Positions 16,393 through 63,269 of a DNA stretch of 64,000 nt are shown here, piece by piece. The stretch's first letter is position 1. Every line of letters starts with the position of its first letter. Where the stretch lies: the NCBI RefSeq assembly GCF_045037415.1, contig NZ_CP173438.1. The stretch is one strand, 5' to 3'. Source of the stretch: Escherichia coli (GTDB lineage Bacteria > Pseudomonadota > Gammaproteobacteria > Enterobacterales > Enterobacteriaceae). The notes beneath the pieces were generated by a model. That model ran no database searches. It was given only the letters and a program-made list of their open reading frames with translations, and was not told the origin of the DNA. Made by a program: the position numbers and the translations under genes.

Positions 16393-16468
16393 TGGTGGGT
16401 CGTGCAGGATTCGAACCTGCGACCAATTGATTAAAAGTCAACTGCTCTACCAACTGAGCTAACGACCC
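16393..16468 (-). tRNA. lysQ: tRNA-Lys(UUU)
   Basis: 76-nt exact match to recalled E. coli tRNA-Lys incl. CCA; symbol by position in operon. Confidence 0.93.
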
Positions 16469-16501
16469 CTTGCGGGATTATGCTGCTTTAATCATTCAGG
16501 A

Positions 16502-16577
16502 TGGTGGGTCGTGCAGGATTCGAACCTGCGACCAATTGATTAAAAGTCAACTGCTCTACCAACTGAGCTAACGACCC
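16502..16577 (-). tRNA. lysZ: tRNA-Lys(UUU)
   Basis: identical 76-nt tRNA-Lys copy. Confidence 0.93.
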
Positions 16578-16625
16578 ATACGGGTGTTACCTGAAAGATT
16601 TCTACTCGGAACCAATGTTTAAAAT

Positions 16626-16701
16626 TGGTGGGTCGTGCAGGATTCGAACCTGCGACCAATTGATTAAAAGTCAACTGCTCTACCAACTGAGCTAACGACC
16701 C
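16626..16701 (-). tRNA. lysY: tRNA-Lys(UUU)
   Basis: identical 76-nt tRNA-Lys copy. Confidence 0.93.
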
Positions 16702-16704
16702 GAG

Positions 16705-16780
16705 TGGTGGGTGATGACGGGATCGAACCGCCGACCCCCTCCTTGTAAGGGAGGTGCTCTCCCAGCTGAGCTAATCACCC
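16705..16780 (-). tRNA. valZ: tRNA-Val(UAC)
   Basis: 76-nt match to recalled E. coli tRNA-Val(UAC) incl. CCA; 3-nt spacer to next tRNA. Confidence 0.9.
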
Positions 16781-16831
16781 GATACTGCGCTGGATACTAC
16801 AAACTACTTCCACCGAACCCACCGTAATCAG

Positions 16832-16907
16832 TGGTGGGTCGTGCAGGATTCGAACCTGCGACCAATTGATTAAAAGTCAACTGCTCTACCAACTGAGCTA
16901 ACGACCC
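16832..16907 (-). tRNA. lysW: tRNA-Lys(UUU)
   Basis: identical 76-nt tRNA-Lys copy. Confidence 0.93.
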
Positions 16908-16909
16908 GG

Positions 16910-16985
16910 TGGTGGGTGATGACGGGATCGAACCGCCGACCCCCTCCTTGTAAGGGAGGTGCTCTCCCAGCTGAGCTAATCACCC
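16910..16985 (-). tRNA. valT: tRNA-Val(UAC)
   Basis: 76-nt tRNA-Val copy; 2-nt spacer to lysW. Confidence 0.9.
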
Positions 16986-17020
16986 GATACTACGCTGGAT
17001 ACTACAACTAACTATGTTAG

Positions 17021-17096
17021 TGGTGGGTCGTGCAGGATTCGAACCTGCGACCAATTGATTAAAAGTCAACTGCTCTACCAACTGAGCTAACGACCC
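17021..17096 (-). tRNA. lysT: tRNA-Lys(UUU)
   Basis: identical 76-nt tRNA-Lys copy; first gene of the operon. Confidence 0.93.
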
Positions 17097-17260: not shown

Positions 17261-18052
17261 TTACATCGCGTTCAGACGTTTTTGCGCCTGTTTAGCGCCA
17301 TCAGTACCAGGGTATTTACTGATAACCTGCTGGTATACGGCTTTCGCTTTTGCGGTGTCACCTTTGTCCTGCATGATGACGCCGACTTTAAACATCGCAT
17401 CTGCAGCCTTCGGTGACTTCGGATAGTTTTTCACTACCGAAGCAAAATAATACGCCGCATCATCTTTTTTACCCTTGTTGTAGTTTAACTGACCCAGCCA
17501 ATAATTGGCGTTTGGCAGGTAAGTTGAATCAGGGTAATTTTTGATGAAATTCTGAAATGCCACCATTGCGTCATCCTGGCGGGATTTATCCTGCACCAGC
17601 GCAATAGCTGCATTGTAATCCGTGTTTGCATCACCGCTTTTCACCGGCGCGCCAGCATTCGAAGTACCAGCATCAGCTGTCGGCGTCGTTGATGCCACCA
17701 CACCGCTTTGATCGCCGCTGGTTGATTGCGCCGCTGCACCACCGCTGCTGAGGCTGTCGATCTGCAACAGGATCTGCTTTTGCCGCTCCACGACCTGATT
17801 CAGTTGATACTGATTTTCCTGAATCTGACCACGCAGGGAATCAATATCGGATTGATTATCAGAGAGTTGTTGCTGGAGTTGGGTTAAAAGCTGGCTGTGA
17901 GCATTAGAAATACGCTCAAGTTGAGTGACGCGGTCTTCGACCGAGCCTGAGCCGACACTACTGATTGGTGCCTGAGCAAAAGCGGCCCAGGGGGCCGCTA
18001 TACCAACCAGTAACGACAGACTCAATAGTTGATGTCTGAAGTTACTGCTCAT
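17261..18052 (-). CDS. cpoB: cell division coordinator CpoB (TPR periplasmic protein)
   Basis: 263 aa; signal peptide, coiled-coil, C-terminal TPR; last gene of tol-pal cluster. Confidence 0.95.
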   Translation of the reverse strand: MSSNFRHQLLSLSLLVGIAAPWAAFAQAPISSVGSGSVEDRVTQLERISNAHSQLLTQLQQQLSDNQSDIDSLRGQIQENQYQLNQVVERQKQILLQIDSLSSGGAAAQSTSGDQSGVVASTTPTADAGTSNAGAPVKSGDANTDYNAAIALVQDKSRQDDAMVAFQNFIKNYPDSTYLPNANYWLGQLNYNKGKKDDAAYYFASVVKNYPKSPKAADAMFKVGVIMQDKGDTAKAKAVYQQVISKYPGTDGAKQAQKRLNAM

Positions 18053-18061
18053 GCAATTCTC

Positions 18062-18607
<546 letters not shown>

Positions 18608-22943: not shown

Positions 22944-23041
22944 TTTACATCCCGGTAATGCAACAAAAGTTAGAGCTTTTAAACGCTGCTACTATACGCG
23001 CGCGATTGAGGTTTGGGAATGAGGGCAAGTTAAGGGAGCGT

Positions 23042-23077
23042 AAAAATTTATGGGCCTGACTCGGCCCATAAATTTTT
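23042..23077. terminator. bidirectional hairpin terminator between ybgE and ybgC
   Basis: ATTTATGGGCC-tgactc-GGCCCATAAAT flanked by A and T runs. Confidence 0.65.
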
Positions 23078-23092
23078 AAAGAGAATTCTGAT

Positions 23093-35602: not shown

Positions 35603-36768
35603 TATTTCCCCTCCACTGCGGCAACAACCTGCTGAGCTGCATCCGTCAGACCTTTTGCTGCAATAATATTCAGGCCGCTGTCAGCCAGTTTCTTCGCACC
35701 GAGTTCGGCGTTGTTACCTTCCAGACGTACCACGACCGGTACGTTAACACCCACTTCTGCTACCGCGCCGATGATACCGTCAGCGATCAGGTCGCAACGA
35801 ACGATACCGCCGAAGATGTTAACCAGAACGGCTTTCACTTTGTCGTCAGAGAGGATGATTTTGAACGCTTCGGTTACACGTTCTTTGGTTGCGCCACCGC
35901 CAACGTCCAGGAAGTTAGCCGGTTCGCCGCCGTGCAGTTTAACGATGTCCATCGTACCCATCGCCAGACCTGCGCCGTTAACCATACAACCGATGTTACC
36001 GTCCAGCGCAACGTAGTTCAGTTCCCACTGTGCAGCCTGTGCTTCACGCGGATCTTCCTGCGACTGGTCACGCATTTCACGCAGATCAGGCTGGCGGAAC
36101 AGTGCGTTGCCATCAGCGCCCAGTTTGCCGTCGAGGCAAATCAGATCGCCCTGTTTGGTAATAACCAGCGGGTTGATTTCGATAAGCGCAAGGTCGCGCT
36201 CCAGGAAAATGGTCGCCAGGCCCATGAAGATTTTGGTGAACTGCTGAACCAGTTTACCTTCCAGACCCAGTTTAAACGCCAGCTCGCGTCCCTGATACGG
36301 CATCGGGCCAGTCAGCGGATCAAGCGCAACTTTGTGGATCAGGTGCGGAGTTTCTTCCGCCACTTTTTCGATTTCCACGCCGCCTTCGGTGGAGGCCATA
36401 AAGACCACGCGACGGGAACTACGGTCAACAACGGCACCGAGATACAGCTCTTTAGCGATATCGGTCGCTGCTTCAACCAGAATCTGGTTAACCGGTTGGC
36501 CATTGGCATCTGTTTGATACGTTACCAGACGCTTGCCCAGCCAGTTTTCTGCAAAAGCACGGATGTCTTCTTTGCTGTTTACAACTTTCACACCGCCCGC
36601 TTTACCGCGGCCACCAGCGTGAACCTGACATTTCACTACCCACGGACCGGCACCGATTTTTGAAGCGGCTTCTTCTGCTTCGCGTGGAGTAGTACAGGCA
36701 TAACCCACCGGTGCTGGTAAGCCATAGCGGGCAAAAAGTTGTTTTGCCTGATATTCATGTAAGTTCAT
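35602..36768 (-). CDS. sucC: succinyl-CoA synthetase beta subunit
   Basis: 388 aa starting [16 protein letters not shown]. Confidence 0.98.
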
Positions 36769-36808
36769 GTGTTCTGTCCATCCTTCAGTAATCGTTATCT
36801 TTTAAACC

Positions 36809-36839
36809 GTAGACCGACCCCCTATCCACGTCGGTCTAC
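36809..36839 (-). other. intercistronic stem-loop between sucB and sucC
   Basis: perfect 10-bp inverted repeat GTAGACCGAC-N11-GTCGGTCTAC. Confidence 0.6.
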
Positions 36840-36861
36840 AGTGCAGGTGAAGCTTAAACTA

Positions 36862-38079
36862 CTACACGTCCAGCAGCAGACGCGTCGGATCTTCCAGCAA
36901 CTCTTTGATCGTTACCAGGAAGCCCACGGATTCGCGACCATCGATCAAACGGTGATCGTAGGACAGCGCCAGGTACATCATCGGCAGGATCTCAACCTGG
37001 CCATTCACCGCCATCGGACGATCTTTGATAGCGTGCATACCCAGAATTGCGCTCTGCGGCGGGTTGATGATAGGCGTAGACATCAGGGAACCGAACACAC
37101 CACCGTTGGTGATGGTAAAGTTACCACCAGTCAGATCTTCAACCGTCAGCTTGCCGTCACGGCCTTTAACTGCCAGCTCTTTAATTTTCTTCTCGATGTC
37201 TGCCATGCCGAGGGTATCGACATCACGCAGAACCGGCGTCACCAGGCCGCGCGGCGTAGAAACCGCCATACTGACGTCGAAATAGTTGTGGTAGACCACA
37301 TCATCGCCGTCGATAGACGCATTCACTTCCGGGTAACGTTTCAGGGCTTCAACCACCGCTTTCACGTAGAAGGACATAAAGCCCAGACGGATGCCGTGGC
37401 GTTTTTCAAACGCTTCACCGTACTGCTTACGCAGATCCATAATCGGCTTCATGTTGACTTCGTTGAACGTGGTCAGCATGGCGGTGGAGTTTTTCGCTTC
37501 CAGCAGACGCTCTGCCACACGCTTACGCAGGCGAGTCATCGGCACACGTTTTTCGCTACGTGCAGCCAGGGCCGGTTGCGCCGCCGGAGCAGCCGCTGCC
37601 GGAGCAGACTCTTTCGCCGGGGCTTTCGCCAGATGTTTTTCCACATCTTCACGGGTCAGACGACCACCCACACCCGTGCCTTTAATGGCGCTGGCGTCGA
37701 GGTTATGTTCAGCCAGCAGGCGACGGATCGCCGGGCTTAACGCATCGTTGTTTTGCTCTTCCAGAGACGCCTGCTGGCGTTGCGCCGGAGTGGACGCTTT
37801 CTCTTCAGATTTGGCGCTGGTTTCTTTACCGGCGCTGTTGCCTTCACGCAGGCGACCAAGGATCTGACGAGACGTTACGGTTGTACCTTCATCTTCCAGA
37901 ACCGCATCCAGAATGCCGTCTGCTGATGCCGGTACTTCCAGTACCACTTTGTCAGTTTCGATTTCTACCAGCACTTCATCACGTACGACTACGTCGCCGG
38001 GTTTTTTATGCCAGGTTGCGACGGTGGCATCGGCTACGGATTCAGGCAGGTCAGGGACCAGAATATCTACGCTACTCAT
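36862..38079 (-). CDS. sucB: 2-oxoglutarate dehydrogenase E2 (dihydrolipoyl succinyltransferase)
   Basis: 405 aa; lipoyl domain, Ala/Pro linker, catalytic domain. Confidence 0.98.
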
Positions 38080-40895: not shown

Positions 40896-41068
40896 CGTGA
40901 TCCCTTAAGCATCTTTTTTATGCTTACTTCGCCGTGGATACTACCACGCACATTTCATATCTGATGTGCGTGCCGGGGTTCACTTGTTGCGGACTTGTCG
41001 TGTTTTCTGCGTCCGCTAAGGAACCTTTAAAAACTGTCTTAGTGTCAGGGGCAGTTTTTAAAGATTTC

Positions 41069-41255
41069 CTGCATTTCTTTTGTAGGCCGGATAAGGCATT
41101 CACGCCGCATCCGGCGCTGTTTGCCTGATGCGACGCTTGCGCGTCTTATCAGGCCTACGGTTTCTGCATTTCTTTTGTAGGCCGGATAAGGCGTTCACGC
41201 CGCATCCGGCACTGGTTGCCTGATGCGACGCTTGTGCGTCTTATCAGGCCTACGG
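41069..41255. repeat. BIME: two tandem ~95-bp copies, each a REP pair
   Basis: 41069-41163 and 41164-41258 near-identical; each holds GCCGGATAAGGCGTTCACGCCGCATCCGGC and GCCTGATGCGACGCTTGCGCGTCTTATCAGGCCTACGG. Confidence 0.85.
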
Positions 41256-61217: not shown

Positions 61218-61250
61218 GCCTGATAAAACGCTCGCTGCGTTTTATCAGGC
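61218..61250. repeat. REP-like perfect palindrome between convergent dtpD and phr
   Basis: 14-bp arms GCCTGATAAAACGC / GCGTTTTATCAGGC with 5-nt loop; overlaps the last codons of phr. Confidence 0.7.
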
Positions 61251-63210: not shown

Positions 63211-63246
63211 AAAAAAGAAAACCGCCAGCGTTTCCACCGGCGGTTT
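63211..63246 (-). terminator. rho-independent terminator of ybfA
   Basis: AAACCGCC-N12-GGCGGTTT followed by a T-run on the minus strand, between ybfA and ybgA. Confidence 0.65.
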
Positions 63247-63269
63247 TCTTTAAACGTCATGTTTGGCAA

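Follow-up and report, generated by a model that had tools for sequence, protein, structure and literature searches.

A short sucB-sucC hairpin in Escherichia coli as the probable BIME-less allele of a polymorphic REP/BIME site

REPs are extragenic, G+C-rich stem-loops of the 30-40-nt class, present in Escherichia coli in hundreds of dispersed copies per genome. The canonical single units (y, z1, z2) are imperfect palindromes with a characteristic mismatch, and the GTAG of K-12 REPs is unpaired and lies 5' of the foot of the stem. Single REPs have reportedly been described as intercistronic mRNA stabilizers, for example between malE and malF, by Newbury et al. in 1987 and by Khemici and Carpousis in 2004, and BIME polymorphism is said to have been documented by Bachellier et al. 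in 1997. BIME-2 elements are built of alternating y and z2 REPs that face opposite ways and are joined by S and s/l/r linkers, and they often form tandem arrays. A doublet of a REP and an inverted REP, framed by GTAG and CTAC, is the unit of the REPIN / RAYT (TnpA_REP) system (PMC3333891, PMC3116915, PMC3733652), and BIME copy number per locus varies among strains (PMC3333891). Stabilization of mRNA by REPs of the malE-malF type is also found in PMC9023263, where BIMEs within operons lie at 3' ends mapped by Term-seq and stabilize the genes upstream of them.

The sucB-sucC spacer of K-12 holds one such element. Its BIME-2 is among the strongest chromosomal gyrase sites (PMC6379681), and its REP is used as a reporter for degradosome activity (PMC4372235), giving rise to a stabilized mRNA decay intermediate, which builds up in delta-rhlB pcnB- cells (PMC4372235, S9 Fig). 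Removal of such REP-stabilizer intermediates depends on PNPase, RhlB and poly(A) polymerase, as is known for the K-12 REP (PMC4372235).

Here we compare with this site the hairpin that occupies its place in the window, the whole 64,000-nucleotide stretch of E. coli DNA that was analyzed. Alignment with other strains makes it very probable that the hairpin is the BIME-less allele of the REP/BIME slot. We also lean, if only a little, towards the complete statement that it represents an old sucB-sucC slot in its minimal form, devoid of a BIME, and would act as an exonuclease barrier. The literature searched contains no description of a minimal sucB-sucC allele or of a genus-spanning GTAG...CTAC frame at this position. 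The short allele refines current concepts and does not change them.

Position and structure of the hairpin

In the open reading frame list, sucA (40895-38094), sucB (odhB; 38079-36862), sucC (36768-35602) and sucD (35602-34733) lie on the minus strand of the window, with a sucB-sucC gap of 93 nt (36769-36861). E. coli records with 100% identity to the window over 36600-37050 carry the names odhB(sucB) and sucC in their RefSeq annotation, which confirms this assignment. The sucB stop codon, TAG (36864-36862), is followed by a second in-frame TAG (36861-36859; together 36859..36864, minus strand), and the transcribed strand of the spacer reads UAG UAG UUUAAGCUUCACCUGCACU-GUAGACCGAC-GUGGAUAGGGG-GUCGGUCUAC-GGUUUAAAAGAUAACGAUUACUGAAGGAUGGACAGAACAC-AUG.

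The sequence-only reading had placed at 36809-36839 a hairpin with a perfect 10-bp stem and a loop of 11 nt, inside the 93-bp gap, on the transcribed strand and with no adjacent T-run. The sequence, the repeat search and the ORF coordinates agree with it on each of these points, the transcribed strand being the minus strand of the window. The core hairpin (36809..36839, minus strand; 31 nt, -17.0 kcal/mol) is made up of the 5' arm GTAGACCGAC (36839->36830), the loop GTGGATAGGGG (36829->36819; GUGGAUAGGGG in RNA) and the 3' arm GTCGGTCTAC (36818->36809; GUCGGUCUAC in RNA), and the palindrome gives the plus strand the same reading, GTAGACCGAC-N11-GTCGGTCTAC. An inverted-repeat search extends the stem to 13 bp (36806..36842, minus strand; arms 36806-36818 and 36830-36842) by the mRNA pairs A36842-U36806, C36841-G36807 and U36840.G36808. 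In this 37-nt form the hairpin folds at -22.2 kcal/mol as sense RNA against -16.5 as antisense, the sense strand being the more stable by 5.7. There are 19 nt between the sucB stop codon and the foot of the extended stem, and 37 nt between the stem and the sucC start codon. The 3' flank on the mRNA is GGUUUAAAAGAU, which has no U-tract, and a pattern scan of 36500-37200 found no terminator-like or promoter-like (sigma-70-like) sites; the hairpin is not an intrinsic terminator.

Chance does not account for the hairpin, since the window contains 12 perfect stems of at least 10 bp with loops of 3-20 nt where 100 dinucleotide shuffles contain 1.04 +/- 0.96, a 12-fold enrichment, and the chance expectation for a given 93-nt stretch is about 0.0015. 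The whole spacer RNA folds at -28.4 kcal/mol (z = -3.2).

Alleles of the slot within Escherichia

The locus is polymorphic: alignments to the window are colinear for some strains, and K-12-like, B-like and other strains match it in two pieces with 170-270 extra bases. All Escherichia alleles have the outer frame CACCTGCACT-GTAGACCG...TCGGTCTAC-GGTTTAAAAG in common, and only the interior varies; in the allele alignment the shared left end is ...UUCACCUGCACU-GUAGACCG and the shared right end UCGGUCUAC-GGUUUAAAAGAUAACG..., with ...CACCTGCACTGTAGACCG and TCGGTCTACGGTTTAAAAG... present in every Escherichia allele aligned. The interior amounts to 15 nt in the window (ACGUGGAUAGGGGGU without the shared ends; 36819..36833, minus strand), where K-12, B, JA0257 and E. 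albertii have REP/BIME units of about 140-290 nt in total, and spacers of at least five lengths (93, 221, 261, 274 and 365 nt) occur in the genus. In the 274-nt spacer of K-12, a pair made up of a y REP and an inverted z2 REP occurs twice in succession, followed by a degenerate inverted unit (AUGCCCGGAAGCGAUACGAAAUAUUCGGUCUAC) that ends in TTCGGTCTAC, and the 365-nt spacer of a B strain has one y/z2 pair more. JA0257 and E. albertii carry a 261-nt BIME version, that of E. albertii being common to some genomes whose SucB sources name E. coli, and in the 221-nt allele (L220) the degenerate unit stands directly in the inverted-REP position, after the y REP. The 12-nt loop GUGGAUAGGGGG was absent from the BIME alleles examined, and position 36819 is G in the window and U in the commonest E. 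coli allele.

By these alignments, unrelated flanks for the hairpin and BIME alleles are excluded. Because all alleles share their ends and the interior alone varies, the comparison identifies the arms as the outermost feet of the first, forward REP (GTAGACCG...) and of the last inverted REP (...CGGTCTAC) of the BIME-bearing alleles; in the short allele, the two feet pair directly with each other, GTAG with CTAC. The slot and its flanks are identical to those of the K-12 BIME-2 (y/z2 array), including 8-9 nt at either outer end (GTAGACCG / TCGGTCTAC), and both elements are transcribed within the same operon. The window differs in having neither y nor z2 units nor linkers, with only its 15-nt core between the shared ends, and the BIME-2 hallmark of alternating inverse units, present in K-12, B, JA0257 and E. 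albertii, is missing from its slot. A y/z2 BIME array (41086-41249) is kept in the window between sdhB and sucA, so the absence of a BIME is specific to the sucB-sucC slot. The sdhB-sucA array (41085-41250) is canonical, with two y-type and two z2-type REPs, and Rfam matches naRNA4 (RF02564) twice within it, on the plus strand and hence antisense to the suc genes.

The hairpin resembles canonical single REPs in being an extragenic, intercistronic, G+C-rich stem-loop of the same size class (31-37 nt) and stability range (-17 to -22 kcal/mol, against -15 to -21 for single K-12 REPs), with a GTAG end and without a U-tract. Unlike them it is single-copy, its stem is perfect and gains only a U.G on extension, where K-12 REP units fold with internal mismatches, and its GTAG lies at the 5' end within the stem, paired with the mirrored CTAC. 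Gapped alignments with the K-12 y and z2 units contain 17-21 identities, mostly at the ends, and a search for REP core motifs had no match at the hairpin, with matches at the sdhB-sucA BIME and other sites of the window. Membership of the y/z1/z2 REP family was consequently rejected on the weak alignment, the single copy, the perfect stem and the GTAG in the stem, and membership of BIME-2 on the missing y/z2 units. A dispersed repeat family was likewise rejected, the 10-mer showing no excess in the window and the 37-mer occurring once per genome. Rfam 15 gave no match at the gathering threshold; its best permissive match (E = 0.49) was to an unrelated miRNA model, and naRNA4 was not found at the hairpin. 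The loop GGAUAGGGGG loosely resembles the y-REP motif GGAUAAGGCG.

As in a REPIN doublet, GTAG and CTAC frame the locus, which also expands and contracts in doublet number among strains; what sets it apart is the missing interior and its confinement to one fixed locus with no sign of mobility. Judged by the substrate rules of TnpA_REP (PMC3333891), the perfect palindrome of the window should be neither bound nor cleaved, and its sequence makes it unlikely to be a strong gyrase site, as the K-12 BIME-2 is (PMC6379681).

Allele comparison and census were based on 5426 complete E. coli genomes. The 37-mer of the hairpin occurs in 3401 of them (about 63%), once per genome (median 1, maximum 2; E <= 10), the K-12-type BIME junction in at least 1724 and the JA0257-type allele in up to 357, and these three cover essentially all genomes. 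Strain names place the short allele in ST131, Nissle 1917, ATCC 11775, O157:H7, O55:H7, O111:H8, O145 and HUSEC2011, and BIME alleles in K-12, MC4100, NCTC86 and one B-derived strain. Any selected feature cannot depend on the interior, because each of the two alleles has a high frequency in E. coli (63% vs about 37%); their coexistence could also mean weak or no selection. The sampled hairpin variants within E. coli are loop changes, with one strain excepted. In APEC20/16 (NZ_CP127297.1 3677309-3677345), G36836->A and C36812->T occur together at paired positions and turn a G-C into an A-U pair. This strain is a singleton, the only genome with a changed stem, and single-change intermediates were found in none of the 5426 genomes; the double change is compatible with either selection or a one-step template-switch event. 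Bases just after the sucB stop also vary between alleles: the B-type allele ends sucB with GUG-UAA-CGACC-UAAG and the window with GUG-UAG-UAG-UU-UAAG (36855-36866), and a Citrobacter-like contig has a similar UAACGA.

About 63% of sequenced E. coli, ST131, O157:H7 and Nissle 1917 included, together with Shigella flexneri, have only the 31-nt hairpin at this position, and conclusions drawn in K-12 on gyrase binding or REP-dependent decay at the slot should be checked before they are transferred to most strains. The two alleles could also serve to separate an RNA-level role of the hairpin, which is likely kept, from DNA-level roles of the BIME, which are likely lost.

The slot in other genera and the maintenance of the stem

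Relatives were surveyed through one genome per species, look-ups of SucC and SucD protein clusters and a pattern scan of metagenomes. The flanks of the slot, ATCACCTG on one side and GATAACGATTAC(C)TGAAGGATGGA on the other, are conserved across genera, the left flank box at the 5' border of the slot reading TTCACCTG in the window (36844..36851, minus strand). Shigella flexneri has the same hairpin as E. coli. Enterobacter roggenkampii has GTAGACCGGC-ACACGCTGC-GCCGGTCTAC, in which a 9-nt loop unrelated to that of E. coli closes a stem that keeps nine of the ten E. coli pairs and has G-C for A-U at the ninth, both sides being swapped. The five Citrobacter sequences read (CCC)GTAGGTCTG-9-CAGRCCTAC(GGG), and Klebsiella pneumoniae has a single 41-nt palindrome, GTAGGCCGGATAAC...GTTATCAGGCCTAC, within the GTAG...CTAC frame. 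The frame holds exactly one BIME (a y REP and a z2-like inverted REP) in Salmonella enterica, and in Pluralibacter the slot contains a hairpin without GTAG, CCCGCGGGCC...GGCCCGCGGG.

The GTAG...CTAC hairpins of E. roggenkampii, Citrobacter, K. pneumoniae and S. flexneri agree with that of the window in their position between ATCACCTG and GATAACGATTAC, in frame and in helix register. Their differences lie in the loops of the other genera, which are unrelated to the window's in sequence and length, and in the stems of Citrobacter and Klebsiella, which are derived from different REP types (z2-like ...TTATCAGGCCTAC). Short hairpins are thus seen in Shigella, Enterobacter and Citrobacter, a 261-nt BIME in E. 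albertii and intermediate states in Salmonella and Klebsiella, and the change could have run either way, through collapse of a BIME or through insertion of a BIME into an old hairpin. The frame, fixed in Escherichia, Salmonella, Klebsiella, Citrobacter and Enterobacter, shows that a REP site can hold its position over tens of millions of years as its content turns over, which bears on whether such elements are mobile parasites or domesticated.

Conservation across Enterobacteriaceae had been named in the sequence-only reading as a check on its proposal, and a hairpin does occupy the same slot in the relatives. Across the order, a hairpin of -12 kcal/mol or below was found in 38 of 39 Enterobacterales spacers (39 species), followed by a T-run in one of the 39 (Rosenbergiella); the fold z-scores of these spacers have a median of -3.3 and lie below -2 in 33 of the 39. 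The metagenome scan with ATCACCTG-N(25-55)-GATTACCTGAA was unspecific, only 4 of 120 loci being true sucB-sucC spacers, of Citrobacter-like variants. Slots outside E. coli are bounded by a near-direct repeat, ATCACCTG ... ATTACCTG(AAGG), the second copy of which is short of one C in E. coli (GATTAC-TGAAGG; window 36788-36851); it could be the trace of an ancient duplication at insertion, or a coincidence.

Covariation was tested in an alignment of ten short-slot sequences with the 13-pair structure. Paired cells make up 98.5% of this structure, against 28-41% if one slides the partner by 1-3 columns, and 7 of the 13 pairs have changed on both sides. The covariation score, which rests on about 3-4 lineages, is 0.52, compared with 0.26 +/- 0.04 in shuffles (reached in 0 of 500) and with at most 0.13 in the slid controls. 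In a consensus fold of eight short-slot spacers, RNAalifold, which was not told the structure, finds the same 13-pair helix. Cells outside Watson-Crick pairing comprise 11 G.U on the sense strand (in three pairs) and one C.A, an excess that points, modestly, to the sense RNA as the molecule that matters. The aligned sequences indicate that the hairpin is evolutionarily maintained, and the covariation supports the stem. In a palindrome formed from a REP and its inverted copy, covariation can nevertheless arise by construction, without selection on the RNA, and template-switch repair in hairpins can produce compensatory pairs without selection. Hairpins found everywhere may perhaps reflect a bias of insertion rather than function; REPs colonize permissive intergenic spacers.

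Possible roles in the suc mRNA

The structure found here, a stable sense-strand stem-loop between two cistrons without a U-tract, is of the kind expected of a REP-type stabilizer, and the most likely function, by analogy with K-12 and from the conservation, is that of a barrier, the experimental evidence being that for the K-12 BIME allele. We regard it as an evenly balanced matter whether the hairpin, in the sense RNA, blocks exonucleases and so keeps the decay of sucCD from reaching sucAB. On the polycistronic sdh-suc mRNA it would work like a single REP stabilizer: endonucleolytic cleavage in the AU-rich, sRNA-targeted sucC leader, or the formation of any 3' end there, would come before the barrier step, the 13-bp G+C-rich stem would stall 3'->5' exonucleases, and the sucAB message would outlive that of sucCD, so that the two enzyme complexes could be expressed in different amounts.

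The sucC leader, UUAAAAGAUAACGAUUACUGAAGGAUGGACAGAACAC (36769..36805, minus strand), spans the 37 nt from the hairpin to the sucC AUG and holds an AU-rich stretch directly 3' of the hairpin, the Shine-Dalgarno sequence and the target region of GcvB R3 and Spot 42; the E. coli alleles examined do not differ in it, and it is nearly invariant across genera. Directly 3' of the stem, GG|UUUAA (GG|UUUAAAAGAU) fits the loose preference of RNase E for RN|WUU. The leader is a direct target of GcvB (R1, R3; C-8 corresponds to 36776 in the window) (PMC9299463) and a target of Spot 42, and SucD falls relative to SucB on glucose (PMC6393394). Within the loop, positions 36820-36828 hold UGGAUAG, the core of the sucC initiation region (AUGGAUAGAAC) in many other Enterobacterales; the match to UGGACAG of E. 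coli sucC is 6 of 7 and is a post hoc resemblance, and a part for the loop as a decoy or second sRNA site is conceivable. A clamp, in which AAGCUUCA after the sucB stop pairs with the sucC Shine-Dalgarno sequence in the single-sequence minimum-energy fold, was rejected because the consensus fold of the eight short-slot spacers does not keep that helix; it retains only a 4-bp UAUC/GAUA helix, which shows no covariation and is broken in E. coli.

The hairpin might instead be a neutral footprint of REP/BIME turnover, either an array collapsed by central deletion or TnpA_REP-type excision or the seed of an array, with no selected role. We think this possible though rather doubtful. A frame identical to the borders of BIMEs, at least five spacer lengths in Escherichia, the strain-variable BIME copy number per locus (PMC3333891) and the commonness of both slot states in E. 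coli are all what it would lead one to expect, and the compensated stem variant, a singleton without intermediates, looks as if it came from a one-step template switch. It sits less easily with a stem that stays intact while sampled variation is confined to the loop among 3401 genomes, and that is kept in E. coli, Enterobacter and Citrobacter despite unrelated loops, or with hairpins that lack both U-tract and GTAG in Pluralibacter, Pantoea, Serratia and Edwardsiella (a hairpin being present in 38 of 39 spacers overall). The bias of wobble pairs to the sense strand also counts against it, and by indicating RNA rather than DNA the same bias speaks against a DNA-level binding site for gyrase, IHF, Pol I or TnpA_REP like that of a canonical REP/BIME, which we consider improbable. 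The K-12 BIME-2 of the slot does contain multiple in vivo gyrase cleavage sites, but gyrase favors the loops and non-complementary regions of y-type REPs (PMC6379681), and the hairpin has none. GTAG, the tetranucleotide recognized by TnpA_REP, is present, yet the enzyme needs it 5' of the foot of a mismatched stem and failed to bind or cleave a perfect-palindrome mutant (PMC3333891); in the window GTAG sits within a perfect stem, and the hairpin has no L-linker or IHF motif. The sequence-only reading had preferred mRNA stability or processing, or protein binding, to termination. That order is upheld by the missing U-tract, by the compensatory changes across genera and by the decay intermediate and gyrase-binding BIME-2 known from the K-12 slot; protein binding becomes the less likely half for the short allele, which has neither the loops and mismatches of y-type REPs nor an unpaired GTAG with a stem mismatch, and the reading had overlooked what the element very probably is, the BIME-less form of a REP/BIME site that is polymorphic and has GTAG...CTAC as its frame.

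We see a slim prospect of the hairpin reducing read-through from sucB into sucC, as a transcriptional pause site or as a weak, factor-dependent attenuator. The nascent RNA would form a stable intercistronic hairpin, SucD and SucB levels are discoordinate (PMC6393394) and one relative, Rosenbergiella, does have a T-run after its hairpin, but the window has no U-tract, the terminator scan was negative and the T-run is absent in the other 38 of 39 relatives. Translation up to 19 nt before the stem and a sucC start 37 nt after it would leave little room for Rho loading, and published operon maps place an internal terminator between sdhB and sucA (PMC4161252). Least of all do we expect an RNase III processing site separating sucAB from sucCD. 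The 13-bp stem is short beside typical substrates, which span roughly two helical turns, and the length and sequence of the stem vary widely among relatives. A passage in PMC9731577 cites Cunningham and Guest 1998 for RNase III processing of the sdhB-sucA mRNA region, but SucB was unaffected in an rnc mutant (PMC9731577).

Beyond the barrier proposed for the short allele, a broader reading can be offered tentatively. The sucB-sucC slot may be an ancient, genus-spanning cassette in which selection keeps the GTAG...CTAC frame and the ability to self-fold while the interior expands to a BIME or collapses, and which would act as an RNA insulator uncoupling sucAB from sRNA-triggered decay of sucCD. 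If this were true, Spot 42 and GcvB would be the sRNA trigger, and natural E. coli strains would form an allelic series, about a third of them having DNA-level BIME roles, such as a strong gyrase site, in addition.

Elsewhere in the window, further perfect palindromes of 11-16 bp lie at 61218-61250, 23041-23078, 41025-41063 and 63214-63251. The first of these (GCCTGATAAAACGC...GCGTTTTATCAGGC) looks like a z2-REP-related perfect hairpin and is possibly another collapsed REP, and those at 23041-23078 and 63214-63251 are flanked by A/T and resemble bidirectional terminators. Rfam also places the CpoB/ybgF thermometer (RF02782, 153.7 bits) at 18023-18161 and a cluster of seven tRNA genes at 16396-17096, both on the minus strand, as would be expected in the tol-pal / lysT-valT region of E. 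coli.
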